Source: Eledone cirrhosa (lineage: Eukaryota). Taken from it: a stretch of 55,380 nucleotides of DNA. The DNA lies in the NCBI GenBank assembly GCA_964016885.1, contig CAXHJY010000792.1:1-55380 (forward strand). The letters are read 5' to 3'. The notes under the pieces are model-generated. The model ran no database searches and was not told the origin of the DNA. It saw nothing but the letters and a program-made list of their open reading frames with translations. The position numbers and the translations under genes are program-made. Position 1 is the stretch's first letter. Each line of letters starts with the position of its first letter. Positions 5,245 to 50,485 of the stretch are shown here, one piece after another.

Positions 5245-5990
5245 TTCGTTTCTGAATTTGTTTAGCAAGATTCTGCATACGGTGGATGAAGTGTTGTATG
5301 TGTCTCTCTAGTTCTTCGGGGTTGCACATGCGGGACACGTTTCTCATCACCCGTACCAAATCCGCAATCAGTATGTTGATTTTGGTATGGTCCGAAACAG
5401 CTGTGTTTCGGTGGATCAGATATTTGGAAGTCATGGGTTTGGCATAATGGGAATGGAGGATTTGTTTTTTGTTATTAATGGTATCTAACCAGAGCTCTGT
5501 CTCTAGTACAGGTAATCGGTGGTTGGGGTGTTTGCTTGGGTAGTCTATAGTAACTCTAATACTCTGGTGGATGGAGTTAGCTATTTGCTGGATGCTTTCC
5601 ATTGTGTTTTTCTCTAATTCCTGACTGTTCTCTGGTGGGGGTGTTTTAACTACGATGTTTATATCATCAACGTAGCGGAATACATTATCAGGGTTAAGGG
5701 GTCTTCTAATTGTTCTTTAAGTTTAAGTTTAAGTCTACTGTCCTACCATACCATGAATAAGTTAGCTATGTCGCCTGCAATGCTAACACCAATGGCTGCT
5801 CCCTCCTCTTGGGCATATGTTTTTCCATTAAATTTGAACATATGTTCCTTAAGGGTTAATTTTATGCTGGCCCCCACCGCATGTGCAACCATTTTCTTTA
5901 GTTCATCTTGGTTTTCGGGGGTCCGTATGGCTCTGGTCCACCCGTTCCATCTATCTGTGTGGGTTTTCTCAAACTTACCTATAGTAATAA
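5245..5990 (-). pseudogene. PLE reverse transcriptase fragment (inverted 5' part)
   Basis: Minus-strand translation gives [46 protein letters not shown] and [11 protein letters not shown]. Confidence 0.8.
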
Positions 5991-7211: not shown

Positions 7212-7545
7212 GGTGGCTGCCAACTCGTTTTCGAGTACGGCCACTACTTTATATCCATGTAGGAGAACCCCTACCGATGCGCTGAACGAGTGTGACTTTT
7301 TGGTCCAGCCAGCAACTTGAAAATCTGGTACAAACACGACACTTGTGACAATTATTGGCACATAGTGCTGGGCCCATGGTATCATGTGACGACAAGTGCA
7401 GAGAGATCTCCAGATATAAAGCAATGCCTGTGCTGTGAAGCTTTTATAGTGAGCAAAGGCACTGCACCAAGCCAGTCCCACTCTCTTAACCAAGATGATA
7501 TTTAGCAAAAAGAAGAACAAGTCAACATCATTGGATCCATCAGGG
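7212..7545 (-). mobile_element. 5'-truncated RTE-derived non-autonomous element
   Basis: Reverse complement of the 3' half of 30774-31383. Confidence 0.75.
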
Positions 7546-7627
7546 AATATATATATATATATATACATATATATGGAACATTATATTATGTAACATTCTC
7601 TCATTGTTCTAATTTATATTCCGTTGA

Positions 7628-7749
7628 AGTTCCGATGAGACGCTCTGTCTTTTACATATGTTAATTATTTTCAACTGAACCAGATCAATTATGACATATA
7701 GTCATCTGATCGAGAAATATTATATGGAGTAACGAAACAATTGTAAACT
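7628..7749 (+). ncRNA. Hammerhead with variant core (CCGATGA) and ~95-nt stem II, in an isolated PLE-type 3' end
   Basis: Stem I agtt/aact; CCGATGA 7632-7638; gctctgt/atggagt; GAAAC-AATT-GTA 7734-7745. Confidence 0.6.
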
Positions 7750-7990
7750 GACATTATTATTATTAATATTATTATTATTATTATTCTCTACATTCCTTAC
7801 ATCAAACTAAAACATGTTGACAATCTTTTAATAATGTCTTCCTTGTGAAATTTGTGGTCTTGTTTTGCTTAACTAATGAATATATATATGAATATAGACA
7901 TAGAATATTCGAAAATATTCTGTATGTTTATAATAAACATTTTGAAGACCTAATCGCTATAGAATAGAATACGTCACGTATTACAATTAG

Positions 7991-8079
7991 ATTCTCGATA
8001 AAAGCAAGGGAAGTAATCTACGCGTTTCATTCTTGTTAGAAATCTTCAGGACTACATATCCAGTGCTTTTATCGAGAAT
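7991..8079 (-). ncRNA. Type I hammerhead, first of 8 minus-strand copies (period 310, last core at 10213)
   Basis: Reverse complement of 10534-10622. Confidence 0.85.
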
Positions 8080-10533
8080 GACACAGCTAGAGACTTATAG
8101 AATACTTAGATGTGTACAGGAACTGGTTTGAAAGAGCGGTTGCCGGTCCGGCAGAAATTAGAAATTGGAATAAATGCTCTGAAATAGCGATATATATGTG
8201 AATATAGACATAGAATATTCGAAAATATTCTGTATGTTTATAATAAACATTTTGAAGACCTAATCGCTATAGAATAGAATACGTCACGTATTACAATTAG
8301 ATTCTCGATAAAAGCAAGGGAAGTAATCTACGCGTTTCATTCTTGTTAGAAATCTTCAGGACTACATATCCAGTGCTTTTATCGAGAATGACACAGCTAG
8401 AGACTTATAGAATACTTAGATGTGTACAGGAACTGGTTTGAAAGAGCGGTTGCCGGTCCGGCAGAAATTAGAAATTGGAATAAATGCTCTGAAATAGCGA
8501 TATATATGTGAATATAGACATAGAATATTCGAAAATATTCTGTATGTTTATAATAAACATTTTGAAGACCTAATCGCTATAGAATAGAATACGTCACGTA
8601 TTACAATTAGATTCTCGATAAAAGCAAGGGAAGTAATCTACGCGTTTCATTCTTGTTAGAAATCTTCAGGACTACATATCCAGTGCTTTTATCGAGAATG
8701 ACACAGCTAGAGACTTATAGAATACTTAGATGTGTACAGGAACTGGTTTGAAAGAGCGGTTGCCGGTCCGGCAGAAATTAGAAATTGGAATAAATGCTCT
8801 GAAATAGCGATATATATGTGAATATAGACATAGAATATTCGAAAATATTCTGTATGTTTATAATAAACATTTTGAAGACCTAATCGCTATAGAATAGAAT
8901 ACGTCACGTATTACAATTAGATTCTCGATAAAAGCAAGGGAAGTAATCTACGCGTTTCATTCTTGTTAGAAATCTTCAGGACTACATATCCAGTGCTTTT
9001 ATCGAGAATGACACAGCTAGAGACTTATAGAATACTTAGATGTGTACAGGAACTGGTTTGAAAGAGCGGTTGCCGGTCCGGCAGAAATTAGAAATTGGAA
9101 TAAATGCTCTGAAATAGCGATATATATGTGAATATAGACATAGAATATTCGAAAATATTCTGTATGTTTATAATAAACATTTTGAAGACCTAATCGCTAT
9201 AGAATAGAATACGTCACGTATTACAATTAGATTCTCGATAAAAGCAAGGGAAGTAATCTACGCGTTTCATTCTTGTTAGAAATCTTCAGGACTACATATC
9301 CAGTGCTTTTATCGAGAATGACACAGCTAGAGACTTATAGAATACTTAGATGTGTACAGGAACTGGTTTGAAAGAGCGGTTGCCGGTCCGGCAGAAATTA
9401 GAAATTGGAATAAATGCTCTGAAATAGCGATATATATGTGAATATAGACATAGAATATTCGAAAATATTCTGTATGTTTATAATAAACATTTTGAAGACC
9501 TAATCGCTATAGAATAGAATACGTCACGTATTACAATTAGATTCTCGATAAAAGCAAGGGAAGTAATCTACGCGTTTCATTCTTGTTAGAAATCTTCAGG
9601 ACTACATATCCAGTGCTTTTATCGAGAATGACACAGCTAGAGACTTATAGAATACTTAGATGTGTACAGGAACTGGTTTGAAAGAGCGGTTGCCGGTCCG
9701 GCAGAAATTAGAAATTGGAATAAATGCTCTGAAATAGCGATATATATGTGAATATAGACATAGAATATTCGAAAATATTCTGTATGTTTATAATAAACAT
9801 TTTGAAGACCTAATCGCTATAGAATAGAATACGTCACGTATTACAATTAGATTCTCGATAAAAGCAAGGGAAGTAATCTACGCGTTTCATTCTTGTTAGA
9901 AATCTTCAGGACTACATATCCAGTGCTTTTATCGAGAATGACACAGCTAGAGACTTATAGAATACTTAGATGTGTACAGGAACTGGTTTGAAAGAGCGGT
10001 TGCCGGTCCGGCAGAAATTAGAAATTGGAATAAATGCTCTGAAATAGCGATATATATGTGAATATAGACATAGAATATTCGAAAATATTCTGTATGTTTA
10101 TAATAAACATTTTGAAGACCTAATCGCTATAGAATAGAATACGTCACGTATTACAATTAGATTCTCGATAAAAGCAAGGGAAGTAATCTACGCGTTTCAT
10201 TCTTGTTAGAAATCTTCAGGACTACATATCCAGTGCTTTTATCGAGAATGACACAGCTAGAGACTTATAGAATACTTAGATGTGTACAGGAACTGGTTTG
10301 AAAGAGCGGTTGCCGGTCCGGCAGAAATTAGAAATTGGAATAAATGCTCTGAAATAGCGATATATATGTGAATATAGACATAGAATATTTTCGAATATTC
10401 TATGTCTATATTCACATATATATCGCTATTTCAGAGCATTTATTCCAATTTCTAATTTCTGCCGGACCGGCAACCGCTCTTTCAAACCAGTTCCTGTACA
10501 CATCTAAGTATTCTATAAGTCTCTAGCTGTGTC

Positions 10534-10622
10534 ATTCTCGATAAAAGCACTGGATATGTAGTCCTGAAGATTTCTAACAAGAATGAAACGCGTAGATTAC
10601 TTCCCTTGCTTTTATCGAGAAT
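10534..10622 (+). ncRNA. Type I hammerhead, first of 11 plus-strand copies (cores 10564 to 13664)
   Basis: 16-bp outer helix attctcgataaaagca/tgcttttatcgagaat; stem I gtagtc/gattac; CTGAAGA 10564-10570; stem II ttct-aaca-agaa; GAAAC-GC-GTA, with predicted cleavage after 10594. Confidence 0.88.
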
Positions 10623-13600
10623 CTAATTGTAATACGTGACGTATTCTATTCTATAGCGATTAGGTCTTCAAAATGTTTATTATAAACATACAGAATATTT
10701 TCGAATATTCTATGTCTATATTCACATATATATCGCTATTTCAGAGCATTTATTCCAATTTCTAATTTCTGCCGGACCGGCAACCGCTCTTTCAAACCAG
10801 TTCCTGTACACATCTAAGTATTCTATAAGTCTCTAGCTGTGTCATTCTCGATAAAAGCACTGGATATGTAGTCCTGAAGATTTCTAACAAGAATGAAACG
10901 CGTAGATTACTTCCCTTGCTTTTATCGAGAATCTAATTGTAATACGTGACGTATTCTATTCTATAGCGATTAGGTCTTCAAAATGTTTATTATAAACATA
11001 CAGAATATTTTCGAATATTCTATGTCTATATTCACATATATATCGCTATTTCAGAGCATTTATTCCAATTTCTAATTTCTGCCGGACCGGCAACCGCTCT
11101 TTCAAACCAGTTCCTGTACACATCTAAGTATTCTATAAGTCTCTAGCTGTGTCATTCTCGATAAAAGCACTGGATATGTAGTCCTGAAGATTTCTAACAA
11201 GAATGAAACGCGTAGATTACTTCCCTTGCTTTTATCGAGAATCTAATTGTAATACGTGACGTATTCTATTCTATAGCGATTAGGTCTTCAAAATGTTTAT
11301 TATAAACATACAGAATATTTTCGAATATTCTATGTCTATATTCACATATATATCGCTATTTCAGAGCATTTATTCCAATTTCTAATTTCTGCCGGACCGG
11401 CAACCGCTCTTTCAAACCAGTTCCTGTACACATCTAAGTATTCTATAAGTCTCTAGCTGTGTCATTCTCGATAAAAGCACTGGATATGTAGTCCTGAAGA
11501 TTTCTAACAAGAATGAAACGCGTAGATTACTTCCCTTGCTTTTATCGAGAATCTAATTGTAATACGTGACGTATTCTATTCTATAGCGATTAGGTCTTCA
11601 AAATGTTTATTATAAACATACAGAATATTTTCGAATATTCTATGTCTATATTCACATATATATCGCTATTTCAGAGCATTTATTCCAATTTCTAATTTCT
11701 GCCGGACCGGCAACCGCTCTTTCAAACCAGTTCCTGTACACATCTAAGTATTCTATAAGTCTCTAGCTGTGTCATTCTCGATAAAAGCACTGGATATGTA
11801 GTCCTGAAGATTTCTAACAAGAATGAAACGCGTAGATTACTTCCCTTGCTTTTATCGAGAATCTAATTGTAATACGTGACGTATTCTATTCTATAGCGAT
11901 TAGGTCTTCAAAATGTTTATTATAAACATACAGAATATTTTCGAATATTCTATGTCTATATTCACATATATATCGCTATTTCAGAGCATTTATTCCAATT
12001 TCTAATTTCTGCCGGACCGGCAACCGCTCTTTCAAACCAGTTCCTGTACACATCTAAGTATTCTATAAGTCTCTAGCTGTGTCATTCTCGATAAAAGCAC
12101 TGGATATGTAGTCCTGAAGATTTCTAACAAGAATGAAACGCGTAGATTACTTCCCTTGCTTTTATCGAGAATCTAATTGTAATACGTGACGTATTCTATT
12201 CTATAGCGATTAGGTCTTCAAAATGTTTATTATAAACATACAGAATATTTTCGAATATTCTATGTCTATATTCACATATATATCGCTATTTCAGAGCATT
12301 TATTCCAATTTCTAATTTCTGCCGGACCGGCAACCGCTCTTTCAAACCAGTTCCTGTACACATCTAAGTATTCTATAAGTCTCTAGCTGTGTCATTCTCG
12401 ATAAAAGCACTGGATATGTAGTCCTGAAGATTTCTAACAAGAATGAAACGCGTAGATTACTTCCCTTGCTTTTATCGAGAATCTAATTGTAATACGTGAC
12501 GTATTCTATTCTATAGCGATTAGGTCTTCAAAATGTTTATTATAAACATACAGAATATTTTCGAATATTCTATGTCTATATTCACATATATATCGCTATT
12601 TCAGAGCATTTATTCCAATTTCTAATTTCTGCCGGACCGGCAACCGCTCTTTCAAACCAGTTCCTGTACACATCTAAGTATTCTATAAGTCTCTAGCTGT
12701 GTCATTCTCGATAAAAGCACTGGATATGTAGTCCTGAAGATTTCTAACAAGAATGAAACGCGTAGATTACTTCCCTTGCTTTTATCGAGAATCTAATTGT
12801 AATACGTGACGTATTCTATTCTATAGCGATTAGGTCTTCAAAATGTTTATTATAAACATACAGAATATTTTCGAATATTCTATGTCTATATTCACATATA
12901 TATCGCTATTTCAGAGCATTTATTCCAATTTCTAATTTCTGCCGGACCGGCAACCGCTCTTTCAAACCAGTTCCTGTACACATCTAAGTATTCTATAAGT
13001 CTCTAGCTGTGTCATTCTCGATAAAAGCACTGGATATGTAGTCCTGAAGATTTCTAACAAGAATGAAACGCGTAGATTACTTCCCTTGCTTTTATCGAGA
13101 ATCTAATTGTAATACGTGACGTATTCTATTCTATAGCGATTAGGTCTTCAAAATGTTTATTATAAACATACAGAATATTTTCGAATATTCTATGTCTATA
13201 TTCACATATATATCGCTATTTCAGAGCATTTATTCCAATTTCTAATTTCTGCCGGACCGGCAACCGCTCTTTCAAACCAGTTCCTGTACACATCTAAGTA
13301 TTCTATAAGTCTCTAGCTGTGTCATTCTCGATAAAAGCACTGGATATGTAGTCCTGAAGATTTCTAACAAGAATGAAACGCGTAGATTACTTCCCTTGCT
13401 TTTATCGAGAATCTAATTGTAATACGTGACGTATTCTATTCTATAGCGATTAGGTCTTCAAAATGTTTATTATAAACATACAGAATATTTTCGAATATTC
13501 TATGTCTATATTCACATATATATCGCTATTTCAGAGCATTTATTCCAATTTCTAATTTCTGCCGGACCGGCAACCGCTCTTTCAAACCAGTTCCTGTACA

Positions 13601-13864
13601 CATCTAAGTATTCTATAAGTCTCTAGCTGTGTCATTCTCGATAAAAGCACTGGATATGTAGTCCTGAAGATTTCTAACAAGAATGAAACGCGTAGATTAC
13701 TTCCCTTGCTTTTATCGAGAATCTAATTGTAATACGTGACGTATTCTATTCTATAGCGATTAGGTCTTCAAAATGTTTATTATAAACATACAGAATATTT
13801 TCGAATATTCTATGTCTATATTCACATATATATCGCTATTTCAGAGCATTTATTCCAATTTCGA

Positions 13865-14331
<467 letters not shown>

Positions 14332-14485
14332 ATGTGTCAATAATTGTCACAAGTGTAGTGTTTGTACCAGAGTTTTCAAGTCGCTGGCTGGACTAAAAAG
14401 TCACACTCGTTCAGCGCATCGGTAGGGGTTCTCCTACATGGATATAAAGTAGTGGCCGTACTCGAAAACGAGTTGGCAGCCACCA
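14332..14485 (+). mobile_element. 3' fragment of the RTE-derived element
   Basis: Encodes [23 protein letters not shown] (C2H2), followed by the terminal hairpin. Confidence 0.75.
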
Positions 14486-14487
14486 TA

Positions 14488-14660: not shown

Positions 14661-14795
14661 GGTGTCTCGATCTCTTGTCCGGAAAGTCCTCAAGATCCAG
14701 CCAGCGAGTTGTCTGCACATTGTCGCCACTTTCATGATGTGTGAAGAAAAAGATGCATCATCGCTCATGTCTATGCCCAAGTCTCGTATCGAATG
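14661..14795 (-). mobile_element. CR1-type LINE RT fragment
   Basis: [33 protein letters not shown], homologous to the 53031 ORF. Confidence 0.75.
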
Positions 14796-14816
14796 GGAGT
14801 AGCAAACATAGTAACC

Positions 14817-16735
14817 TATGGGGGAACACTAAGGGAGTTATAGATTGGTTCTCCGGGATTAATAGACTTGAATCTAATAAGTTTATCCAATTCGATATTG
14901 ATGCCTACTACACATCAATTTCACCCATCCTCCTCAATAAAGCTTTAATGTTGGCCATGAGAGTGTCCAGCCTTACACGATCACAGGTAGATATTATACT
15001 AGCAGCCCGTAGAACTATTATTAATTTTGAGGACACATTTTGGACCCGTAAAAACACGCCCAATAATTTCGACGTTACAATGGGTTCGAGTGATTCGGCC
15101 CAGGTTACTGATCTTGTTGGGTTGTTCCTCCTTAATGAACTATATGCTACCTTCCCGCACCTTATAGGCGGACTATATCGTGATGATGCATTCTTTGTAA
15201 TAAACTCTAGCACCAACAATGTAGAACATAATAAGAAGAAGCTTTATAAGTTTTTTAAAAGCTATAACCTTTCGATCACGATAGATAGAAATGATAGAGC
15301 GGTTAACTTTTTAGATTTGACTTTGGACTTGGTCACTAATAGTTTTAAACCCTTCCATAAGCCTAATGAAATACTTTCTTATGTTAGTCCCAATTCTAAC
15401 CACCCCAAGTCTATGATAAGCTCTATAATTAAGGGTGTATCTAATAGGATTTCCACACTCTCTAAGGACGTAGGAACATTTAATGAACATGCGGAGTACT
15501 ATAATAATGCCCTAGCAAATTCAGGTTACTCTAGTAAAATACACTATAATAATAGTAACCTTAGAAAGTCTCCGTTTACTTTTAATAATAATAACATAAT
15601 ATCACATAACATGGCCATGAATGGGAGTAGCAAACATAGTAACCGTAAAAATTATATAGGTCTATCTGAACCCATCCATAAGTTAACCCACCGGACGCGT
15701 AATAGTTAATATAATACCTCTAGGAAACAAGTTGAACCCCCTGAGCGCTCACACATTGGTGATAATTTTGCTGAATCTTATTCTAATAATGTTGCTCCTA
15801 CTGATCCTATCATTGGCCCTAATCCTTATGATGGGATTCCGGACAGCAGCAGATCTACTGGAGGTAGAAACTGTAATAGACTTAATGAAATTTTGGCTGA
15901 TTCTATGAATGCGGCTTTAACTAATCCTTGTAGTAACCCTAGTCTCGATGGTGGGATATTTGATAATGGTAGAGTCGGTAAGAATAAAAATAGAAGGCGA
16001 TTAAATACTTATTTCAACCCGCCATATAATCAGGAAGTATCAACTAATATCCCTAGGTCTTTCTTCTCTATCTTAGAGAAAAATTTCCCCCCTTCTCATA
16101 AATACCATAGTATTTTTAATAAAAATGTTATTAAACTTTCATTCTCTACCACCCCTAATATTAGTTCTCATTTAGCTAGCACGAACAATAGGAAAATTAG
16201 GGATGGATTCTCCTCTCTACATACTACTCGTCTGAACAGATCTGGCAATGCATTACCACCAGAACAGTCCTTATCTAATAGCAATCCTACGTGTAATGCA
16301 TCACCACTTGAGCCAACCAATAACACCCGGAAGTGCAATTGTAGAGTGAGTGCTAACTGCCCTTTAAACGGTAACTGCCTTTCTAAGAACATTGACTATG
16401 CTTGCGAAGTTATAACTAATTCCTCTAATAGAACTTATATAGGCTCTACATCTAACACTTTTAAGACTAGGTTCAACTCTCATATCTCTAATTTCAAACA
16501 TGTTAAGTTTAAGAATTCTACTTCTTTAGCACATTATATCTGGGATCTTAAGGGAGCTAATATACCATATAGCCTTAACTGGCGTTTAGTAGCACGCTCT
16601 AACCACCTTTCTACGCATGCTAAGTTTTGTAATCTCTGTATCCTCGAGACACACTCTATAATTTTCTCTAGCGCATCCTTACTTAATAGAAAGTCTGAGA
16701 TATTCTCTTCTTGCCCCCACGCTATTTCTAATTAA
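14817..16735 (+). pseudogene. PLE RT / GIY-YIG ORF with one in-frame TAA (15707-15709)
   Basis: ORFs 14741-15709 and 15893-16735 share a frame and the gap is open. Motifs: FDIDAYY, GLYRDD, NFLDLTL, YFNPPY, CNCRVSANCPLNGNCL, YIGST, CNLC..E, LNRKSE..CPH. Confidence 0.9.
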
Positions 16736-21354: not shown

Positions 21355-23995
21355 TATCATCGGTAATATCAGCAAAAAGATTATTGATCGTATCATTCCG
21401 CAAATTAAAAAATGTGTAACACTTCCACTATGGGATAACACTTCCCAAATTATTGAATGATTCACTAGCATTGGGAATACAAACTCAGCTTCATTCATTC
21501 AATTCTTACTATTCTTCGATTTCTCCAATTCTTTTAAACAAAGCCCTGATCTTCGCAAGAAATAGATCGGATTTCAACGTCATAACTCACGCTAGAAAAA
21601 CCTTACTAAACTTCCAAGAAGAATACTGGACAAGAATCACATATAACAACTTATTCGATATTACGATGGGATCCATGGACTCTGCTCAAGTTACAGACCT
21701 CGTTAGACTATTTCTCCTCTATAATATTCATGACTCTTTTCCCCACCTCAAAGGTCGTTTTTATCGGGATGATTGTCTATTGTTATCTAACAATCTTAGC
21801 AATTCCAATATAGAGAAAAACAAAAAACAAATTAGAAAATTCCTCAAGGACTATTACAGCCTTAGCATCACTTTTGAAAACACTTCAAAAGAAGCTAATT
21901 TCCTTGATGTTACCGTAGACCTCTCTACAAATACTTATCAACCTTACCACAAACCCAACCAGTATCTACATTATGTACATTCACGATCTAACCACCGTGG
22001 CTCTATACTCAAGAACTTAGTATATAACATATCTCTTAGACTTTCTAAATTATCTTCCAATGAAGATATTATTTTATAATAATTGTTTCTACGTTAGGCA
22101 CAAGGCCAGCAAATACTCAGTGTATTACTGGTACTTTATTTTATCGACCTCGTAAGGATGAAAGGCAAAGTTAACCTCGGCGGGATTTGAACTCAGAATA
22201 GCAAGGGTCGTAACTCTATGCGTCAAAGCATGGCGTCCGACTCTCTACCAATACTGCCAATCCACCGCAATTCTACAACGAGACCTTAACTAGAAGTGGG
22301 TATAAAGAAAAAAATCTCATATATCCCCAACACTACTATGAACCAAAATATAAAACCTAGCAGAAACTACAAACACCAAAAAATACCATTGAAACAAATA
22401 CTTAAAGTAGTTATTCCTATTACACCAAACAACCGAAAAACCACAACAACTATTACTACACGATCTATGACCAATGTTATCAACCCACATATGAATACCA
22501 AGCACACAAAATCTCATAATCTACCCAATAATAACACCAAATACAACCACGGTAATTTACAAAATTCCACAAATAAGGATACTAACCATAGGAATTATTC
22601 TATAACACAACACAATAATATAAGTGGTAATAAGAACTTAACTAAAAACCGCAAAAGAAACATAACATAGTACAACTCACCCTTCAACTGCAAACTATTG
22701 GACAAATCCCCAAAACATTCTTTGAAATTCTACATAAACTTTTTCCACCAAACCACAGATACCACCAAATATTTAACAGATATACTGTTAAATTCTCATA
22801 CTCTACATCAAGCAATCTCCAGCAAAGAATAAATAACTACAACATTTATAAACTTAAAAATAATATGACTACACCACCACAACATAATTTAAATAGGACT
22901 GCACCTTTTAAAAAAGCAAATAATACCATCCTTCAACCTAGAAAACACAACCACCCAAATCACCAACACAAAAACAACAGAACACAAAATCACAATACAG
23001 CCCTAGCACCAAACCACCCACAAAGCAACCTTCATTCTCCTGCTATCATTAATTACAATAGGAATAGCTCAAGGATTAATGAGAATAGTATAGGCACACC
23101 CAACAACCATCTTACGTATGGCTGTAATTGCAGAAATAGAAGCATTTGCCCCTTAAATGGAAACTGTTTGATTAATAATGTAATATATAAATGTACTGTG
23201 TCTACTACAGACTCCAACAAAACATATATAGGATCTACATCAAACACATTTAAAAGATTTTATGCACACTCTAGTAGTTTCAACAATACTAAACTTGCTA
23301 ACACCACATCTTTAGCTGAAGCGGCAAATAATTATAAAAAGAAAAAAATAAAGATTTCAAGTTATCGTGGAACACCATTCTACAAAGAACTCCATATCTT
23401 GGGAACAGGAGGGAATGCAGATTATGTTCAGGAGAGATCTTGGAAATTACTAAATCTAAGGACGATTTATGAAATAAAAGGCAGGAACTGATCATAGTTT
23501 GTAATAACCGTACACGGAGAACATTTAAATACTATAAACCTAATTAAATATTCTAAATAGCAACTCACTATAAGTCTATAACATTTATTAGTACCCCTTT
23601 CCCCTAATTATATGCATTCATGCTGATTTTTTTACCTTTTAATGTTTTAGCTTCCTTAGGTTTATGCGTTAATGACTAAAGGCAACAAGGTACACAACCA
23701 ACCGTAATTGCATGAGTAAACATATATCTATGTATGATATGGAAATATGTTTATGTGTGTGTATATGTATATTTATGTATATGTATATATGTATATATGT
23801 ATATATATATGTATATGTATATGTATGTGTGTGTGTGTATGTGTGTATATATATATGTCTGTTTGTATGTGTGTATATGTGAGTATATTTGTATGATTGT
23901 TTATATATGAGTGTGTGTACATGTATGAGGAGTGTACATACACACACATATATATATATGTATGTATATATATGTGTATATATATATATATATAT

Positions 23996-25438: not shown

Positions 25439-27045
25439 AACCAGTAAGACCCCGACAGCTGAGCTCAAGCCGTTTCGACGGCTAACACTGGACTAAATGA
25501 AAATTTATCCTGGTATTTAAATAGCCGATCTTCTCAAGGGGTAATTCCATATATGGTCAAAGTGATTGTCAAAAATCAGTAGTAATTCTGTGGTTGCAAA
25601 TTAGTAGGGGAGATGGTGGCTAAACCTGCCAGTAGGAGAAAGAGGGGAGGGGGTGGAGTAGACCCAATCAAGCGTTGGTAGTGCCAGCTACAGCTGGGCA
25701 TGAGGTCAAAGAAGATACAGGGGAGGGGGAGGGGGGGGAAGTCGGAACGGTAGGTAGAACAATGGGGGGTAGAAATAGGAAAGAAAAAATACTGAGAGTG
25801 AAGAAAAGCAAATAAGTGTAAAGAAAAAAGTAAAGTAAATTAAATTCTACGACCTAGGTGTCAGGCTATTGTTAGGCTAGAATAAAATAAAGAAAGAAAG
25901 AAAGAAGTAAATAAATAAATAAATAAATAAATAACGAAATAAGTAAAAGAACTAGGTGGGACGAAATAGGCAAGGACCCTTTTAAGAGGTATAAGTACGT
26001 AAATGATACGGTGACGGGTCAACAAAAGGGGCCAAAATACTAAAGAGACTACCACGAAATAAACAATAAAGGCTTCCATCCCGGGCCAGCAACGACCCAG
26101 TGCAGCAAAGTGAACTTGTACGAGATAATAATTCTGAGTCCCGAGAAAAATATATACTAATGCTAACTCTAAAAGATCTAAAACAAGCTACATGAAGGTT
26201 CGTACGAAATAAAGGTAGAATACGGAGAAATAAATTCAGAATCCACCCCGCCCAGAAGAAAAGCGAAGCAAGAAATACTGAAACGAAAAAATAAGGCATA
26301 AGTGCCACTAAGAAATATAGAGGGCACAGAGAATAGTGGGAGCGGTCGGAAAAAGGGGGCAAGTATCCGGGGTCTAAGCCAACTGCTATAAAGGGCGGAG
26401 TCCGCCAAATCTATCATAGACTAGGGTCCTTGCCTATTTCGTCCCACCTAGTTCTTTTACTTATTTCGTTATTTATTTATTTATTTATTTATTTACTTCT
26501 TTCTTTCTTTCTTTATTTTATTCTAGCCTAACAATAGCCTGACACCTAGGTCGTAGAATTTAATTTACTTTACTTTTTTCTTTACACTTATTTGCTTTTC
26601 TTCACTCTCAGTATTTTTTCTTTCCTATTTCTACCCCCCATTGTTCTACCTACCGTTCCGACTTCCTCCCCCTCCCCCTCCCCTGTATCTTCTTTGACCT
26701 CATGCCCAGCTGTAGCTGGCACTACCAACGCTTGATTGGGTCTACTCCACCCCCTCCCCTCTTTCTCCTACTGGTAGGTTTAGCCACCATCTCCCCTACT
26801 AATTTGCAACCACAGAATTACTACTGATTTTTGACAATCACTTTGACCATATATGGAATTACCCCTTGAGAAGATCGGCTATTTAAATACCAGGATAAAT
26901 TTTCATTTAGTCCAGAATTAGCCGTCGAAACGGCTTGAGCTCAGCTGTCGGGGTCTTACTGGTTCCTATTACCCACTCTACTACCTCAAGTATTGAGTAC
27001 TTTGGTGCGTTATGGTCCACCTGGTTCCTTACCACATTTCCTTCG

Positions 27046-33394: not shown

Positions 33395-33432
<38 letters not shown>

Positions 33433-33588
33433 GTTAATTTGTATTCCAATGTTACTAAGTAGTTGCATTGGATGGAGTCAACTGACGTCAGAGATTGCTC
33501 AGCGTATAATAAAGCGTGTTTTAAAATCCGGAGAAAATATGGAGGAAAATTTTTTACGAAATGGAAATGCGGGTATATAGAATTTATT

Positions 33589-33705
33589 AGGTAACAATTG
33601 TTTCTATAGTGTATGAGTTACCTATACTTCGCTACTTGAATAATACACAAATATTATCAAAAACCGAAAGTACACTGTAAGCCAACACACCATGTCATCA
33701 GACCT
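33589..33705 (-). ncRNA. Type I hammerhead with ~90-nt stem II
   Basis: Mirror of 35827-35943. Confidence 0.75.
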
Positions 33706-34006
33706 TTGTATTAGAATGATATGAAAATATTTCATACACTAGATAAAAGATAAAGTAGGAGGTAGGAAGAGAAGGGGAAGAGGGAAGTGAGTGAGGTGGA
33801 GGGAGTCTTAGGGTTTAAGACTGTCAGACTAGTAGAGATTGTGAAGAGAGAATGTTTTGGCAGCAGTTAGCTTAATGAGGCGTGCTAAGGTTGGCTGGGA
33901 AGTAGATTCTTCTAGTGGTGTTGTTCGGACAAAATTTAGTTAGAGGGGTCAAAGTAGTACAGTGTCACAGACAAGCTATTAGGGCTATTATAGTAGCAGG
34001 TTATTT

Positions 34007-35239
34007 CTAAAGGGGTCCAGAAAAACAGTGTTTAGTACTATTATTATAGAAAGCCATATCTAGTGTATAAACATATAAGACAGAAATTCGCAAACGTTGG
34101 TGTAAAAAGGTAACATTATATGCATTTAAAAAAGAAAAAGTCGTTTTCAAACGATAGTTACAATATAGAGAACGTTCAATTTTGCTGTTCAAAAGTTTGT
34201 TTACCGACGTTAAAATGCAGTATATCTCTAAATTGCATAACTTGCAGAATCGATGATTTTGCTGATATGCAGGCGCAGCTGCAATAATTTGCCAATCAAG
34301 GGAGAACGCTTGATTGTTACTCCGAAGCTGCCAGGCTTTATCGGCGAGGGTTGTTACGGAGCGCATTTTCTCGTGCCTGATCGAAGATCGATGTTGGTAT
34401 AGGCGAGCCTTGAAAGAAGTTGCGGTACATCCGACGTAATACCATTTGTTGGTCCCGGAATTTATTGTACACCGGTAGACAATATTGCGTGCTAGGCACT
34501 GGTTATTCAGTGGGCACGTACCTGGTTTGGTGCAGTTACAACTATTTTTATGTTTTGCAGTAGAATCCTGGATAGTTTGGTGGGGTTGTGGTTGCGTGTT
34601 AGTGCGTTGTATGTTGCTATGCTGGTGCGCTGAGTCATTAGGGATGTACTTATTCAGTATTGCTGAGTTGAGTTTTCTAATTAGTTGTTCTATGTTAGGT
34701 GCAGTGGAGTATGAGAGTCTAATGGTGCGCGAGTTAAAGATTTTATAGTATTTATGTGAAGTTGTAAAGTGTTTATTGATTAGTGTATAGAATTGTGAGA
34801 TAATCTTAGTGCTAATAGAAGAATTGTACACGGGGTTATACCATATGTACTCTCTACGTCTGACTCTATTTGCTGGTTTGCACCTGTTAGTATGCCTATT
34901 GATGTGTGTGTGTGGTGCAATACTAGTTCGACTTAGATGTGTTTTATTCATAGTACTTATGTGGTTATCGTCTAGATATTCAATTTTCTCGCAGTAACTA
35001 GCTTTTCTAAGTGCGTCATTATAATATTCAGCATGCTCGTTGAAGGTCTGCAAATTAGACGACAGTCGGGAGATCCTTATGGATATATTTTTAGGGATAG
35101 ATTTTAATAATGGAATGAGGATGGTTCGATTTTACATTAACGTACTTAAGATTTTCATTAAGTTTGTGAAATGGCTCTATATTACCGTTATTAAGGTTGA
35201 AGGTGACATCCAAGAAGTTGACCACCTTAAGATTGTGTT
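34007..35239 (-). pseudogene. PLE RT-thumb / GIY-YIG ORF, 5'-truncated
   Basis: VNFLDVT, WYNPVY, LSYST, CNCTKPGTCPLNNQCL, IVY..YVG, RLYQH, CKLC..E, LN.K.E. Confidence 0.88.
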
Positions 35240-35826
35240 CAAATTATTGCAGCTGCGCCTGCATATCAGCAAAATCATCGATTCTGCAAGTTATGCAATT
35301 TAGAGATATACTGCATTTTAACGTCGGTAAACAAACTTTTGAACAGCAAAATTGAACGTTCTCTATATTGTAACCATCGTTTGAAAACGACTTTTTCTTT
35401 TTTTAAATGCATATAATGTTACCTTTTTACACCAACGTTTGCGAATTTCTGTCTTATATGTTTATACACTAGATATGGCTTTCTATAATAATAGTACTAA
35501 ACACTGTTTTTCTGGACCCCTTTAGAAATAACCTGCTACTATAATAGCCCTAATAGCTTGTCTGTGACACTGTACTACTTTGACCCCTCTAACTAAATTT
35601 TGTCCGAACAACACCACTAGAAGAATCTACTTCCCAGCCAACCTTAGCACGCCTCATTAAGCTAACTGCTGCCAAAACATTCTCTCTTCACAATCTCTAC
35701 TAGTCTGACAGTCTTAAACCCTAAGACTCCCTCCACCTCACTCACTTCCCTCTTCCCCTTCTCTTCCTACCTCCTACTTTATCTTTTATCTAGTGTATGA
35801 AATATTTTCATATCATTCTAATACAA

Positions 35827-35943
35827 AGGTCTGATGACATGGTGTGTTGGCTTACAGTGTACTTTCGGTTTTTGATAATATTTGTGTATTATTCAAGTAG
35901 CGAAGTATAGGTAACTCATACACTATAGAAACAATTGTTACCT
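35827..35943 (+). ncRNA. Type I hammerhead with ~90-nt stem II
   Basis: Stem I aggt/acct; CTGATGA 35831; atggtgtgt/atacactat; GAAAC-AATT-GTT 35928-35939. Confidence 0.75.
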
Positions 35944-35988
35944 AATAAATTCTATATACCCTCATTTCCATTTCGTAAAAATTTTTTT

Positions 35989-42859: not shown

Positions 42860-43635
42860 TTAAAAGGGATGTTGGTATGGGTGTGTGATGGATAAGATGC
42901 AAAAAGAAGGTAATGTCGGGAGTCAGTAGATTTTAAAATATATGTCAGCTTTTAATGTTCAGTTTCCTTTTGTCATTAGGATATCTAACAATGGAAGCTT
43001 TGTATTGTTAAAATCCATAATGAATTGGATATTCTGGTTTATATCATTGATGAGGGTTTGAAATGTCTTTAGTTGGTCAAGATTCTCCCTCCACAATATG
43101 AAGCTGTTGTCAAAGTACTTCTTCCAGTTTTCTTTTTTATAATCACCGAAATTATTCCTATGAATTTGTTCTTTTTTGTTTTGTTTTGGGGTTTTTTTTT
43201 TTGGGGGGGGGGGGGGGGTTGTAAATTTGTAATTCAAAGTATCCCATGATTCCCATGACTTTTGCTGGCGCAACGTTTGTCCACATGGCTATTTGATTTC
43301 TGTCCGCAAGCTATTTCATCGAAAATAAAATAATTGTTTTTTTAAATGAATTCATGTCCGTCTACGATGAACTTCTTAATAAAGCGGTCTGGTTGTTCAT
43401 AAGGGAATTAGTCTAGCAAATATTTGATGGATTCGATTTCGTAATCGTGTGGAATGTTACTATATAGTTTCACAACATCCAATGAGATCAAGTGATTTGG
43501 CTCACATTATCTTGTAGATGGTTGTGAAAATCTAAAGCATCTCGTATGAAACTCCGAATGTGTTTGAGGAGAGATTTCAATAAGATGTCTAAGAAATTTC
43601 TTAGGTGGTGTGTATCGCAGATTGGACCTGCTATA
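42860..43635 (-). pseudogene. Old PLE RT fragment (non-Hydra type)
   Basis: IAGPICDTHHL..FLDILL, SLDVVKLYSNIPH, W.KYFDNSFILW, LPLLDI and NIPFNLA, with many stops. Confidence 0.75.
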
Positions 43636-43691
43636 ATGCAAAAGGCCTGTCAATGCATTTTTCAAACACAATATATATATATATATATATA

Positions 43692-44115
43692 TGAATGTAT
43701 GTGTAGTATATTTGGCAATATACCGTATGTTTAATTAAAAACATTTAGAAGACCATACGTTATCAGTTTTAAAGTAGTGTCTATGTCACTTACTTCTTTT
43801 CGGTGAATGAAGGGAGAGAAGCTGACAGTCTGTTTCACACCTGTTTGGCGTTCATCAGAGTGACGCACTCCCCTGATTCCGCCGAAAATTATAGAAGCTG
43901 GATTCTTATAAAATTCCAGTAATAATCAGGGGCTGATTATACAGAGCGATTACCGGTCCAGCAAAAATTAGGTATTAGGATTGGTGTTCTGAAATAGCGA
44001 TGTATACATGGATGTATGTATAGTATATTTGGCAATATACCTTATGTTTAATTAAAAACATTTAGAAACCATACGCTATCAGTTTTAAAGTAGTGACTAT
44101 GTCACTTACTTCTTT
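43692..44115 (-). repeat. 317-bp HHR-bearing unit (1.3 copies), sister family of the 310-bp array
   Basis: tagtatatttggc occurs at 43704 and 44021. Homologous segments gagcg.tt.ccggtcc.gca.aaattag..tctgaaatagcgat and atgttta..aaacattt.gaagacc. Confidence 0.8.
43797..43888 (-). ncRNA. Type I hammerhead ribozyme
   Basis: CTGATGA (43852-43858); acgcc/ggtgt; GAAAC-AGACT-GTC; long outer helix, weak proximal stem I. Confidence 0.7.
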
Positions 44116-44881
44116 ATGTATATATATATTTAAGTTCTATGTTTATCTCGTAGATTAGTAATTTGACAAATAGGGATCGATTAAGTATGGACCAGGCATA
44201 AAAATAAGAACTCGGATCGATATGATCAATTAGATGTGCCCCAGCATAGCCTTACTCTAACAACTGAAACCACTATAAGTAGGAATGAATGTATATCAGG
44301 AACAACAAAAGTATAGCAGCTATTAATTTGCGCTGAAAGGAGGAATCAAAAATGATTTCAATGCTTCGGACATTTGTCTTTCGTCAAATAATACGTTTAC
44401 AATAAACACTTCATATTGAAAGAAGTAGCTTAACCGGATGGAGTTTCTCCATAAAAGGTCAACGGGTATAATAAATCTTCGGTGCATGCATTTGTGGTTT
44501 ATAGCCTGTGTATGTGTTATATTTCATCAAGGGACGTAAGGTACGAGAACATATGTTGAATGTCTATATAGGAGTGTACAAGTAAATGTGTGTGTTATCA
44601 AATCAAGGGAGATAAAATGCAAAATAAATTCTATGTGTATTTGTAGTTGAATATGTCTGTGCAAATTCCCACGAGAAGATTCACTACCAATATCTCGTAT
44701 CCATAATCCACCTATTAAACACGTACCAAGATGCCTCATTCATATCAACTACCCAACAGTTATATATGTATATATGCGTGTGTGTATATATATATATATG
44801 TGTGTGTGTGTAGAGAGAGAGATATGTATATATGTATATACGTGCGCATGCGCGTGTATATGTATATACACATGTATATAT

Positions 44882-46842: not shown

Positions 46843-49800
46843 GGCCCTTTCTGCCTGTGTGTTTGTTTGTTTATGTGTGTTCGTATACAGCGTGGTGATA
46901 ATGCCACACAAGGGCCAAGTGGGATGGCGGATCCACAGATGGCTATGTAAACATACATTCGCCAATCCTCGATAAGAGTGTTTAAATATCGAACATAAAC
47001 AGTTCGAATAACGGTGAAATGGAGACTAGAACGTCATGTGACAGACTCTCACCCAACAGGTGCCCCCTGGCTCAGCAGCAGGAACCTGACTGTCAACCAA
47101 ATACTGCTGATGTTGGAGGAAGGAGAAGAAGGAAAGGGGCCAGAACCAACTGGACGAAAGAATTGAATAGAACTGTTATGCAATGCTACCTGAAAAGTAA
47201 CCCCAAGGAGAGGGGCTACAGGAGACGGATGCATAACATCTGGAACGAGATTGGTTTATTTAAATTAGATGAACAAAAATTGGCCGGGCAGGCTCGGGTA
47301 ATAAGAACTAATGGGTGGATAAGCGAGCTGGAACTGGAGGAACTGAGCAGAGAGAATGGCTTGGAGATGGCGGGTGTAGTATGCCAGACAAGCGAGCCGG
47401 TGGGAAATGAAGGTGAGGAGGTCCTGAGAACGGAGGAACCACCCGAAGCAGACAATGATCTGAGTACTGAGATAAATAATACCTGGAACAGAGATACGGC
47501 CACTGAGGAGATGAATGCTGACGGGCTAGGACAAGATTCGGTTGACATCCTAAATTTAGTGGTAGATGAATTGAACAATGATAGTGGGAGACCTATGAAC
47601 CTAAGATTTGTAGACAGGAAAAAGTTAAAATAAACAACAGCTAAGGTAAACAAAGTCATCCCATACCTTGAGGCGAGGAGCCTTCACCAGTGCAACAATA
47701 TCCTCAGAGCAACAGCAAATACGGTGAGGAAACTACTTGGTATAAAAGCGAGAGGAAACAACAGACAAGAAAGAGCAGAGCCGTGGTGGAAGAAGCAACT
47801 GAGTGGGCAAATCGGGGAAATGAGAAATGACATAGGAAAGCTTGAGTCACTACTGAATGGGACACTAAAAAACATAGGCACTAAAAATAGACTGGAAATA
47901 AAATACAAAACTAGGAGTAAAAAGCTAAATATTATCATAGAGGAATTGAAGCAACGCATTGTAGCAAAGAGTGCAAAAATCAGGCGATACGAGAACAGAG
48001 TCAGTCAGTATAAACAGAACCGCATGTTCGACAACAACCAGAAGATGCTGTTTCGACAGCTTGAGGGCAAAGAAAGAGGCAACGACTTGATCCCTGGGGC
48101 GGAACAAACTAAAACATTCTGGAGAGGAATATGGGAGCAGGATGTTAGACACAATGCCCAGGCAGGGTGGATTGAGACAGTACAGAGGGAGATCGGTGAG
48201 CAGGCACAGCAACAGACTGATTTGAGTATCACAGTTGAAACTCTTAAGGGGCAAGCCAAAAAACTAACCAACTGGAAATCACCAGGCCCAGATGGTGTGC
48301 AGGGGTATTGGATTAAACATCTAACATCCCTCCACCCGAAGCTGACGGCCATGTTCAATGACTGCTTGGTGTCAGGTGAGGTGCCAGAGTGGTTGACAAA
48401 AGGTACCACAGTTCTGATAATGAAAGACCGAATCAAGGGTAATGATGCTACCAACTATAGACCTATCACATGTCTGCCCGTAATGTGGAAACTGTTGACG
48501 AGCATTGTGTCTGAGGAAATCTACCATCACCTCCACACAAACAACTTGTTACCGGACGAACAGAAAGGATGCCGAAAGAAGTCACGTGGTACAAAGGACC
48601 AGTTGCTTATTGATAAGATGGTAATGGGGAATTGCAGGAGGAGACACACTGATCTTGCCATGGGATGGATAGACTACAGAAAGGCATTTGACATGGTGCC
48701 TCATTCCTGGATCACCAAAAACCTGGAGATCTTCAGGGTGGCAGATAACATCAGACAGTTGCTAGGCAGGAGTATGGGGTCCTGGGAGACAGAGTTGACA
48801 TCAACTGGAGTATCCTTGGGAAGCGTGAAGATCAAGAGAGGTATCTTCCAGGGAGATAGCCTGTCCCCTCTGTTGTTTGTCCTTGCCCTGATGCCCTTGA
48901 CCATTATGCTGCGAAAAGTGAGAGCAGGATACAAGTTGGGAAGGGGAGAGCTTACCATCAATCACCTCCTCTTCATGGACGATCTTAAGCTCTTCGGGAA
49001 AAGTGAGAAGGAGTTGGATGTGCTTGTTGACACTGTCCGTATTTTCAGCAGTGATATATGTATGCAGTTTGGTATTGGTAAATGTGGAGTCATTGTGATG
49101 AAGAGGGGTAGGTTGAGCAGAAGTAACGGGATCCAGATACCAACAGGTGAGATGATAAAGGAAATTGACTCTGAGGAAGGATACAAGTATTTGGGCGTTC
49201 TGGAGGCTGATGGCATAAAGAACAAAAAAATGAAGGAATTGTTAAGAACTGAATACATTCGGAGAGTAAGGAGCGTATTGAAGTCACATCTGAACAGCAG
49301 AAATGCCATAAGCGCAGTAAATTCCCGAGCTGTGTCTATTATTAGGTACAGTGCGGGAATTCTGAGATGGAATGTTGCTGAACAAAAAGAAATGGATAGG
49401 AAGACTAGGAAGCTATTGACTATCTACAACATGTTCCACAAGAGGAGTGATGTCGATAGACTCTACCTAAGGAGATCTGAGGGTGGAAGAGGTCTTATCA
49501 GCATAGAGGACTGTGTTCAGATGGAGAAAAACAACCTATACAAATACGTGACCTATAGTAAGGAGCCAATGCTCAGAACTGTACTGAAGGAGGGGACAGT
49601 AGGCCAGGGGATGTCCAGGGGGGAAATAACATCAAGGAGGAAGAGCAGCCTTAAGGGAAAATCCCTTCATAGTACCTTCTTTGAGAAAACTGAATTTAGA
49701 GATCCACAGACATGGAACTGCTTGAGAAGAGGAGACCTCAAAAAGGCTACAGAAGGAATGCTAATGGCTGCGCAGGAGCAGGCCCTCAAAACGAAGTGGT

Positions 49801-50485
49801 TGAAGCACCATATCTACAAGGAGGAGGCTAGCCCACTGTGCAGGATCTGTGGAGAGAGAGAGGAGACTGTGGCTCACATTGTGTCCGAGTGTAAACACCT
49901 AGCCCAGACCCACTATAAGGGCTGGAGACACGATGTGATGGGCAGGGTGATCCACTGGCACCTGTGCAAAGTAAACAATCTACCACATTCTGAGAAATGG
50001 TATGAGCATAGGCCAGAGGCGGTGATGGAGAACAATCAGGTGAAGGTGCTGTGGGATTTTAGGATACAGACGGACAAAAAACTGGAACACAATAGACCTG
50101 ACCTGGTGGTTGTGGACAAAGAAAAAAGATCGTGCCTGATTGTGGATGTGGCCTGCCCGTTCGACACGAGAGTGCAAGAGAAGGAGAGGGAGAAAATTAA
50201 CCGATACAAGGACCTAAAGTGGGAGGTGAAAAGGATTTGGAACTGCCATGAAGTCAAAGTGATCCCGATTGTCATAGGCGCACTGGGGACTATCTCCAAA
50301 AGTTTCCAGGGATGGTTAAAGAAATTCGGCCCCTTCACGCTTTTTGGAACGCTTCAAAAGGCATGCTTGCTTGGAACAGCAAGAACCCTCCGATACGTCC
50401 TGAATATCTGAGGCTGCAGGTAGTGGCTTGATATTCAATCCAACGGACTTTCCAGTTAACCAACATCAATGACTGAGATTCAAGG
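46843..50485 (+). mobile_element. Dong/R4-clade RLE non-LTR retrotransposon, near full length (5' boundary uncertain, possibly about 46180)
   Basis: Single RT-CCHC-RLE ORF, 74-nt 3' UTR and (AAT)n 3' flank. Confidence 0.88.
47019..50411 (+). pseudogene. RT / restriction-like endonuclease ORF (1130 codons) with one in-frame TAA at 47631-47633
   Basis: ORFs 47019-47633 and 47724-50411 are in frame. Motifs: YRPITCL, DYRKAFD, QGDSLSP, FMDD, YKYLG, CRIC..H....C, RH, RPD..D..K. Confidence 0.92.

Follow-up and report, generated by a model that had tools for sequence, protein, structure and literature searches.

Two-armed hammerhead retrozyme arrays of Eledone cirrhosa share the insertion layout of Penelope-like elements

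Metazoan retrozymes that lack long terminal repeats (non-LTR retrozymes) are known together with circular RNAs (circRNAs), and the available parts of two earlier accounts propose that multimeric cDNA arises from such circles, with Penelope-like elements (PLEs) as candidate partners (PMC7229834, PMC7761336). According to what is accessible of the review among them, retrozyme repeats show no motif pointing to a partner (PMC7761336). A further study, likewise available in part, ties retrozymes to PLEs by co-occurrence and by similarity of the pseudo-long terminal repeat (pLTR) and attributes the arrays to local amplification (10.64898/2026.07.22.740005). PLE insertions are described in the accessible sections of other work as having an inverted 5′-truncated copy, a one-sided tail of 30 to 40 bp, and a (TA)n target (10.1101/2021.04.23.441226, PMC3846280); the protein of an anole PLE cuts both strands and extends them, two internal RNA start sites bound the tail, and a dimer is predicted (PMC11167929, available sections). 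Here, we analyzed a 55,380-nucleotide stretch of Eledone cirrhosa DNA (contig CAXHJY010000792.1 of assembly GCA_964016885.1), hereafter the window, which carries a head-to-head array of 19 hammerhead ribozyme units, together with the family of insertions to which this array belongs.

Like the non-LTR retrozymes described so far, this family has a noncoding tandem unit of ~310 bp, one type I hammerhead with a weak helix III, low GC content, thousands of copies, target site duplications (TSDs) longer than 4 bp, and PLEs in the same genome (PMC7229834, 10.64898/2026.07.22.740005); it differs in its inverted arms, its tail, and its two priming sites, which the accessible text of these two papers does not describe. 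The arrays also look born as multimers, in contrast to the local amplification of the latter study, in which RNA was demonstrated, whereas the window family is known from DNA. With insertions of endonuclease-bearing PLEs, as far as the available text of the sources goes, it has in common a head-to-head 5′-truncated copy, a tail between two reverse transcriptase start sites, TSDs (8 to 10 bp), (TA)n targeting as in Hydra and Naiad, and a hammerhead upstream of the start sites (PMC3846280, 10.1101/2021.04.23.441226, PMC11167929). Unlike those PLEs, however, it has no open reading frame (ORF), both of its arms are long exact multimers, and the arms nearly always use different start sites, which departs from the in vitro study in its accessible part (PMC11167929). 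Among the PLEs examined, no pLTR match from the window family to an autonomous family was found. Nonautonomous Chlamys elements such as MRC1 differ by occurring in green algae, by mostly lacking a hammerhead, by targeting (CA)n, and by having a known 3′ similarity to their autonomous partner (10.1101/2021.04.23.441226, partial text). A literature search with subscription journals mostly outside its scope turned up no report of retrozymes with inverted arms, tails, or haplotypes shared between arms. The class of element and the signature of its insertion have each been described before; what is new here are the long arrays with two arms, the rule that pairs two end sites (the A/B rule below), and the evidence for a single template. 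For retrozymes, the mobilizing enzyme and the circle-to-array step were proposed earlier and now become testable through these insertions, which also bear on a second question, how PLEs come by their inverted arm and tail.

Layout and ends of the insertions

The array occupies positions 7889 to 13862 of the window, which is an entire unplaced contig (55 kb) of a 3.0-Gb assembly. An earlier analysis based on the letters of the window (the sequence-only reading) had described 19 units of 310 bp, with eight hammerheads on the minus strand followed by 11 on the plus strand, no mismatches between units, and no substantial ORF, all of which was borne out. The left arm (7889 to 10389, minus strand) comprises 2,501 bp or 8.07 units with eight hammerheads, and the right arm (10382 to 13862, plus strand) comprises 3,481 bp or 11.23 units with 11 hammerheads; period-310 identity is continuous along both, and the longest ATG-started ORF in the unit measures 30 amino acids. 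With unit positions numbered from the base following the predicted ribozyme cut, the left arm has its outer (3′) end at position 130 and its inner (5′) end at position 110, and the right arm has the corresponding ends at positions 168 and 98. The two arms meet in an 8-nt overlap (10382 to 10389) supplied by a hairpin termed H2, and they contain a perfect inverted pair (7889 to 10389 and 10394 to 12894) separated by a 4-nt spacer. The right arm alone is terminated by the stretch leading from site A to site B, the two end sites defined below (13825 to 13862, plus strand), which equals the 30- to 40-bp PLE tail. The extent proposed earlier, 7881 to 13862, was right at its right end and wrong at its left boundary, which lies at 7889. 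Its statement that both ends are in TA was incomplete, as an 11-bp duplication that is not a pure TA run flanks the array (7878 to 7888 and 13863 to 13873, plus strand), the right copy continuing into (TA)n. The array was inserted into the TA-terminated 3′ end of an older, different PLE family (7570 to 7888, plus strand), which counts 2,004 candidates in the genome (95 to 97% identical) and sits downstream of a GIY-YIG region in loci L097 and L099.

Exact matches of a unit 24-mer number 16,056 for the common form, with G at unit position 219, and 53 for the form found in the window, with T at that position (T219), for a sum of 16,109. The family thereby totals ~16,100 units or about 5 Mb of the genome, and ~2,200 loci can be estimated from the 7.4 units per insertion seen in 15 loci, which makes this a rough figure. 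The 66 insertions studied consist of 39 from the 38 best BLAST loci, where a perfect unit on the minus strand was the criterion, 11 from the eight other T219 loci, 15 from unselected loci (those heading the C1 listing, taken irrespective of haplotype), and the window array. The reference unit is the commonest among the sampled loci only through the BLAST choice, and the A284T variant is present in 13 of the 15 unselected loci. Tandem noncoding repeats within the ~150- to 450-bp range, a type I hammerhead in every unit (recognized by inspection, with no Rfam model match), and dispersed copies with TSDs of more than 4 bp place the family among the non-LTR retrozymes, and the ORF-free unit sets it apart from autonomous PLEs with their reverse transcriptase and GIY-YIG ORF. 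On these sequence features, it is a new, young, and very active retrozyme family. The window array is real and biological and is an ordinary member of this large family, above average in length. Dispersed loci, for which the sequence-only reading had recommended a search, were found on other contigs with the same two-armed layout; neither a lone satellite locus with diverged units nor a fold-back artifact, the outcomes it had set against itself, was encountered. Satellite DNA, meaning a few long head-to-tail arrays that evolve in concert and bear no marks of insertion, does not fit the dispersed short two-armed arrays with TSDs.

Two arms were present in 53 of the 66 insertions (12 of 15 in the unselected set), every time in minus-then-plus order and never in the opposite one, an order in which the 3′ side of the RNA faces outward at both flanks. 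The outer ends gather at two places in the unit, site A (positions 128 to 139) and site B (positions 161 to 172). Among 51 two-armed loci, 47 have one end at each site, one has both ends at B, none has both at A, and three have an end elsewhere, so that A is paired with B in 47 of the 48 classifiable loci (p = 1.7e-13). This count omits L071c and L072, which are duplicated or cut off, and uses a right end supplied from L077 for L040; L072, although set aside, is also B+A. Given this near-strict pairing, the two primings appear to be coupled in one event. Single-armed insertions end at A in seven of eight cases (assembly-gap cuts and the duplicated L071 left out), and priming therefore probably starts at site A. 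This site is TA-like and able to pair with the target; at site B the match amounts to 1 to 3 nt. Outer ends pass into (TA)n or AT-rich sequence, i.e., an AT-rich or microsatellite target. Inner ends are evenly distributed along the unit (p = 0.32), and at most of the 51 two-arm junctions, the arms overlap by 1 to 8 nt, abut bluntly, or are separated by a short insert.

A strict test detected TSDs of 7 to 13 bp in 9 of 57 loci, which is 9 of the 15 loci with informative flanks (not pure TA), compared to 31 of 3,192 mismatched flank pairs; a looser test (20/57 versus 242/1,500 controls) was dropped in its favor. With an inverted, 5′-truncated arm placed head to head, a target in (TA)n, and a tail of ~30 nt that is of the one-sided 30- to 40-bp kind and lies between two apparent reverse transcriptase start sites, a feature shared by an older sister family, the array layout matches the known PLE signature, and mobilization by PLE machinery is very likely. 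The palindrome is the standard PLE insertion layout and no peculiarity of the locus, a point that the sequence-only reading had overlooked along with the TSD and the A/B rule of the tail. Fold-back self-priming was rejected as a general source of the second arm, the arms being unequal and the junctions mostly asymmetric. A subfamily (L073, L074, L083, and L047:6292-6628) carries ~12 linked changes, several of them within sites A and B, with its ends still at the equivalent places.

A single template and the competing explanations

Each locus has its own haplotype, which agrees over all units of both arms. In the window, the locus-private T for G at unit position 219 (10503 in the first plus unit) is present in 19 of 19 units. 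Agreement between the arms could be tested at 17 loci with nonreference variants: at 16 of them, a variant fixed in one arm is so in the other as well, and at the remaining locus, 12 of 13 variants are shared; ten of the 17 loci belong to the unselected set, where random arm pairs would match with a probability of 0.13. Within loci having at least five covering units, 61 variants occur in a single unit, 38 in all units, and 12 in between (10 of these in just two units), and sporadic differences amount to 5e-4 per base. All 53 exact T219 matches were accounted for: the window haplotype is found in no other array, and outside the window T219 is fixed in two arrays of other backgrounds and in one duplicated older locus and occurs as single units in five loci. 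Similarly, L072, with 12 + 30 hammerheads (42), is fixed for T146C, and the longest other T146C arm in the assembly has seven units versus the 30-unit arm of L072. Because haplotypes are fixed without matching source arrays, we infer that a single variant monomer is repeatedly made into a long two-armed array.

The arms do not end at the ribozyme cut, 1 of 102 inner ends falling within 10 nt of it (6.6 expected); no indel break occurs at the cut site in 38 loci, and errors are not enriched at the ligation site, with only three sporadic substitutions near the cut, all at position 6. Arm lengths (57 unselected arms, mean of 1.0 kb) follow an exponential distribution (Kolmogorov-Smirnov p = 0.81), as predicted by constant termination on an endless template, and insertions of this youngest family average 7.4 units with a maximum of 42. 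Multimeric circles were not supported as templates, since the period-2 and period-3 patterns of L045, L046, L048, L071, and L076 do not span whole arms or both arms. Taken with the insertion layout, the best reading of these sequences, and one that we hold to be probable, is that a PLE reverse transcriptase, primed on both strands, copied a single circular monomer. The family-wide data favor what had been suggested for the window, namely, retrozyme identity, PLE-type mobilization, two-sided priming at a cut in (TA)n, and a monomeric circle as the template.

In the mechanism that we propose, arrays would be transcribed, and the tandem hammerheads, probably acting as dimers, would release 310-nt monomers to be ligated into circles, as the anatomy of the unit and other retrozymes suggest. 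A PLE protein would cut (TA)n with a 7- to 13-nt stagger, to which the observed TSDs correspond, and both DNA ends would act as primers for reverse transcribing one shared RNA, with site A (~128 to 139) used by one end and site B (~161 to 172) by the other. Such priming would yield two outward-pointing arms and a one-sided tail, which is the end pattern observed, with the enzyme geometry presumed. The putative circle would let each arm run a random number of turns (mean of ~1 kb, up to 30 turns), after which the two truncated inner ends would be joined through the microhomology or short inserts seen at the junctions. With two-sided priming followed by inner-end joining, the palindrome would arise anew at each insertion. 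In its full form, with a pair of PLE reverse transcriptases priming both cut ends on a single 310-nt circle at two fixed sites ~30 nt apart and running up to 30 turns, we give this mechanism an even chance. If true, rolling-circle reverse transcription of circRNA into the germline of an animal would be recorded directly in these genomic insertions, and one coupled reaction on one template would explain both the tail and the inverted arm of PLEs. The ~2,000 fresh, naturally barcoded insertions, the mapped start sites, a candidate hairpin, and the A/B rule define substrates for in vitro work. The ~5 Mb of near-perfect inverted repeats would also be likely sources of double-stranded RNA and of instability.

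Several observations weigh against copying from a circle by a PLE enzyme. Cleavage, the RNA circle, and its expression are predictions from genomic sequence, and no RNA dataset is among the 20 sequencing runs listed as holding the unit. In the accessible portions of the published work, one of nine Xenopus retrozyme dimers cleaved in vitro (10.64898/2026.07.22.740005), and with the anole PLE protein, unprocessed RNA was the main substrate and the two strands were alike in start site (PMC11167929). Of the 66 insertions, 50 were picked by closeness to the window unit or for having the T219 variant. The assembly is haploid and gapped, so an absent source array is no proof. Duplication after insertion did take place locally, as seen from the 12 intermediate variants and from L045, L048, L071 (mosaic), L072, and L079 (junction duplicated). 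None of the 40 scored among 2,004 candidates was an empty-site allele of the window insertion. Finally, no autonomous PLE with a shared 3′ signal was found among 30 sister loci, 30 loci matching the pattern of a wider hammerhead clan (see below), endonuclease-proximal ends, and 29 Hydra-type reverse transcriptase loci, which represent a limited share of this genome's PLE families.

The template for the same two-site priming could instead have been linear, a long transcript of a preexisting array that had escaped cleavage. The preference of the anole PLE for unprocessed RNA, the weakness of helices II and III, and the failure of most tested Xenopus retrozymes to cleave all agree with this, and homogeneous sources would give arm-shared haplotypes with no pile-up of ends at the cut. 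However, rare variants are fixed in whole two-armed arrays that have no multimeric source in the assembly, a 30-unit arm requires a source of at least 30 units when the longest other arm has seven, and a single-unit variant is common to both arms only in L072; we consider a linear transcript unlikely. Growth in place, in which PLE-type insertions of one or two units later expand by unequal exchange, is the model preferred in the available text of 10.64898/2026.07.22.740005, and it accounts for fixed haplotypes as well as for the intermediate-frequency variants and block duplications just listed. Growth with age is nevertheless disfavored by the older sister family (92 to 94% identity among copies), whose arrays have only 1.0 to 2.4 units at 30 of 30 loci, compared to a mean of 7.4 and a maximum of 42 in the youngest family. 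Lengths are also smoothly exponential without a step at one or two units, and the intermediate variants are nearly all confined to two units against a low rate of sporadic differences, and we regard local growth as the origin of the arrays as quite improbable.

Other reverse transcriptases are known to jump between templates, and an enzyme that repeatedly jumped from the 5′ end to the 3′ end of a cleaved linear monomer would explain the monomer bottleneck without a ligase. Such jumps should leave errors and stops at the cut, which the single nearby inner end, the lack of indel breaks there in 38 loci, and the substitutions confined to position 6 speak against, making this route very improbable. 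An assembly or fold-back read artifact could be suspected, as the window is an entire unplaced contig, its palindrome is near perfect, and the layout rests on the assembly; yet 52 other loci on chromosome-scale contigs share the layout, the arms are within 40 nt of equal length in only 2 of 49 cases, junctions are near-symmetric in 9 of 51 (p = 0.064), flanks differ between loci, TSDs are present, and the A/B rule holds. An artifact is accordingly hardly credible, although the number of units given for any one locus may be inaccurate.

The repeat unit and its hammerhead

In the first plus-strand copy, motif and fold delineate a type I hammerhead at positions 10558 to 10600 (plus strand throughout). 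Its 6-bp helix I pairs 10558 to 10563 with 10595 to 10600, its core lies at 10564 to 10570, helix II, whose base carries a U.U pair, lies at 10571 to 10584, and a helix III of only 1 to 2 bp with a palindromic, i.e., self-complementary, loop lies at 10585 to 10594, after which the cut is predicted. A 16-bp helix prolonging helix I (10534 to 10549 with 10607 to 10622) is supported by sequence and fold. The core and helices were recognized in 19 of 19 units, and the hammerhead region folds with z = -5.7, none of 200 shuffles being equally stable. An Rfam search gave no hammerhead match at the gathering score; at E values up to 10, it returned two chance microRNA matches and again no hammerhead. 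The description of a "full" type I hammerhead therefore stands for the core, the 16-bp helix, and the listed hairpins and overstates the rest, considering the short helix III, the U.U pair in helix II, and the Rfam result. At the level of haplotypes, none of 23 substitutions falls in the catalytic core and seven fall at tolerant hammerhead positions, small numbers that do not make a significant test.

Amphibian satellite hammerheads (newt, axolotl) with a palindromic loop act as dimers according to the accessible text of PMC7229834. They resemble the window hammerhead in that helix III has 1 bp and a tetraloop that is palindromic and that the base of helix II carries a U.U pair; the window hammerhead differs by uniting both weak features, and its activity as a dimer is presumed. 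In related families, the helix III loop stays palindromic though its letters change. By analogy, the tandem hammerheads probably cleave as dimers via this loop.

Twin hairpins H1 and H2 (10673 to 10711, plus strand) are located 76 to 81 nt past the cut, immediately upstream of site A, and related hammerhead families keep this spacing. Across 30 loci, the pairing of H2 holds in 191 of 240 cells, compared to 17 to 58% in slid controls, with pairs changed between families. The twin hairpins are a candidate recognition signal for the reverse transcriptase. The G-to-T change at unit position 219 was found on at least three haplotype backgrounds (the window and L069 to L076) and breaks a helix of the predicted circle (from -67.8 to -61.1 kcal/mol); position 219 is a possible hotspot of damage or error.

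Partner elements, related families, and neighboring sequences

PLE reverse transcriptases are plentiful in this genome, with 44,972 candidates, of which 124 were scored, and open frames of up to 1,081 amino acids; their clade was assigned by the CxCX5C linker, the Pfam GIY-YIG match being only weak. Given such abundance of predicted PLE enzymes, enzyme supply is no obstacle. The Hydra-type PLEs examined have ends unrelated to the retrozyme, and no hammerhead family of the clan described below was found joined to a PLE ORF. Apparent retrozyme-PLE links in L127 and L166 proved to be separate adjacent insertions.

A copy of the older sister retrozyme lies in the window itself (43683 to 44120, minus strand), 74% identical over 141 nt, with 1.4 units and an end at site A in TA. 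This sister family has 2,851 candidates in the genome, a stronger helix III, short arrays, and the same A/B inverted layout. Profile searches further revealed a clan of 310- to 350-nt hammerhead families with the same twin hairpin, a paired H2, and the tail (L135 to L164, L063:2650-2854, L102:559-766, L107, L132, and L166:450-790), with 882 matches to one degenerate pattern. A small hairpin insertion at L065:5032-5150 consists of a hammerhead very like that of the window family and its inverted copy. Unrelated short palindromic insertions centered on hammerheads, stubs of other PLE-type families, were seen in L032, L038, L044, L049, and L066.

The array is flanked by 3′ ends of a TA-associated long interspersed nuclear element (LINE) family in opposite orientation (7212 to 7545, minus strand; 14336 to 14486, plus strand), alike in 143 of 147 aligned letters. 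This LINE end has 26,271 exact 24-mers in the genome, and because of this abundance the two flanking ends are regarded as chance neighbors. The window also contains a 925-amino-acid open reverse transcriptase frame of a LINE that we take to be RTE-like (47634 to 50411, plus strand).

Sampled unit words were present at 61 to 86% in the 20 sequencing runs mentioned above, which bear 18 organism labels, come from 17 studies, and contain near-identical units. The comparison with the unit and its flank covered 4 of these 20 and used runs X8, X15, X20, and X21. X8 contains the unit and the flanking repeats, as expected of the same or a close species. X21 (raw reads of 1,938 million letters, from another sample with the organism label of X12) yielded no read on either unit or flank and thus provided no test. 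X15 and X20 each gave a single contig, restricted to the unit and of low depth (9.6 and 5.1), with the variants A284T and A295G that segregate in this genome, and lacked the flanking LINE. As the more abundant LINE end is absent, their source is not plain genomic DNA like that of the Eledone cirrhosa assembly; RNA-derived carry-over and a low-copy element in those organisms are both possible. X23 and X24, which share the label of X6, contain almost none of the unit. Horizontal transfer was given little weight, as the four-run comparison gave it no support and contamination, close kinship, and transfer are indistinguishable.

Elsewhere in the window, Hydra-type PLE fragments lie at 1227 to 2970, 14738 to 16735, 21420 to 23491 (plus strand), and 33428 to 35986. 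The last of these has 594-bp inverted arms that are 99% alike, one arm being ~118 nt longer, an unusually long tail. Fragments of two other PLE types, presumably Naiad-like and Neptune/Penelope-like from their motifs, are found on the minus strand at 5270 to 5716 and about 42950 to 43660, respectively. At 25885 to 26518, equally long stretches of (AAAT)n and (TTTA)n face each other and probably represent another inverted insertion.

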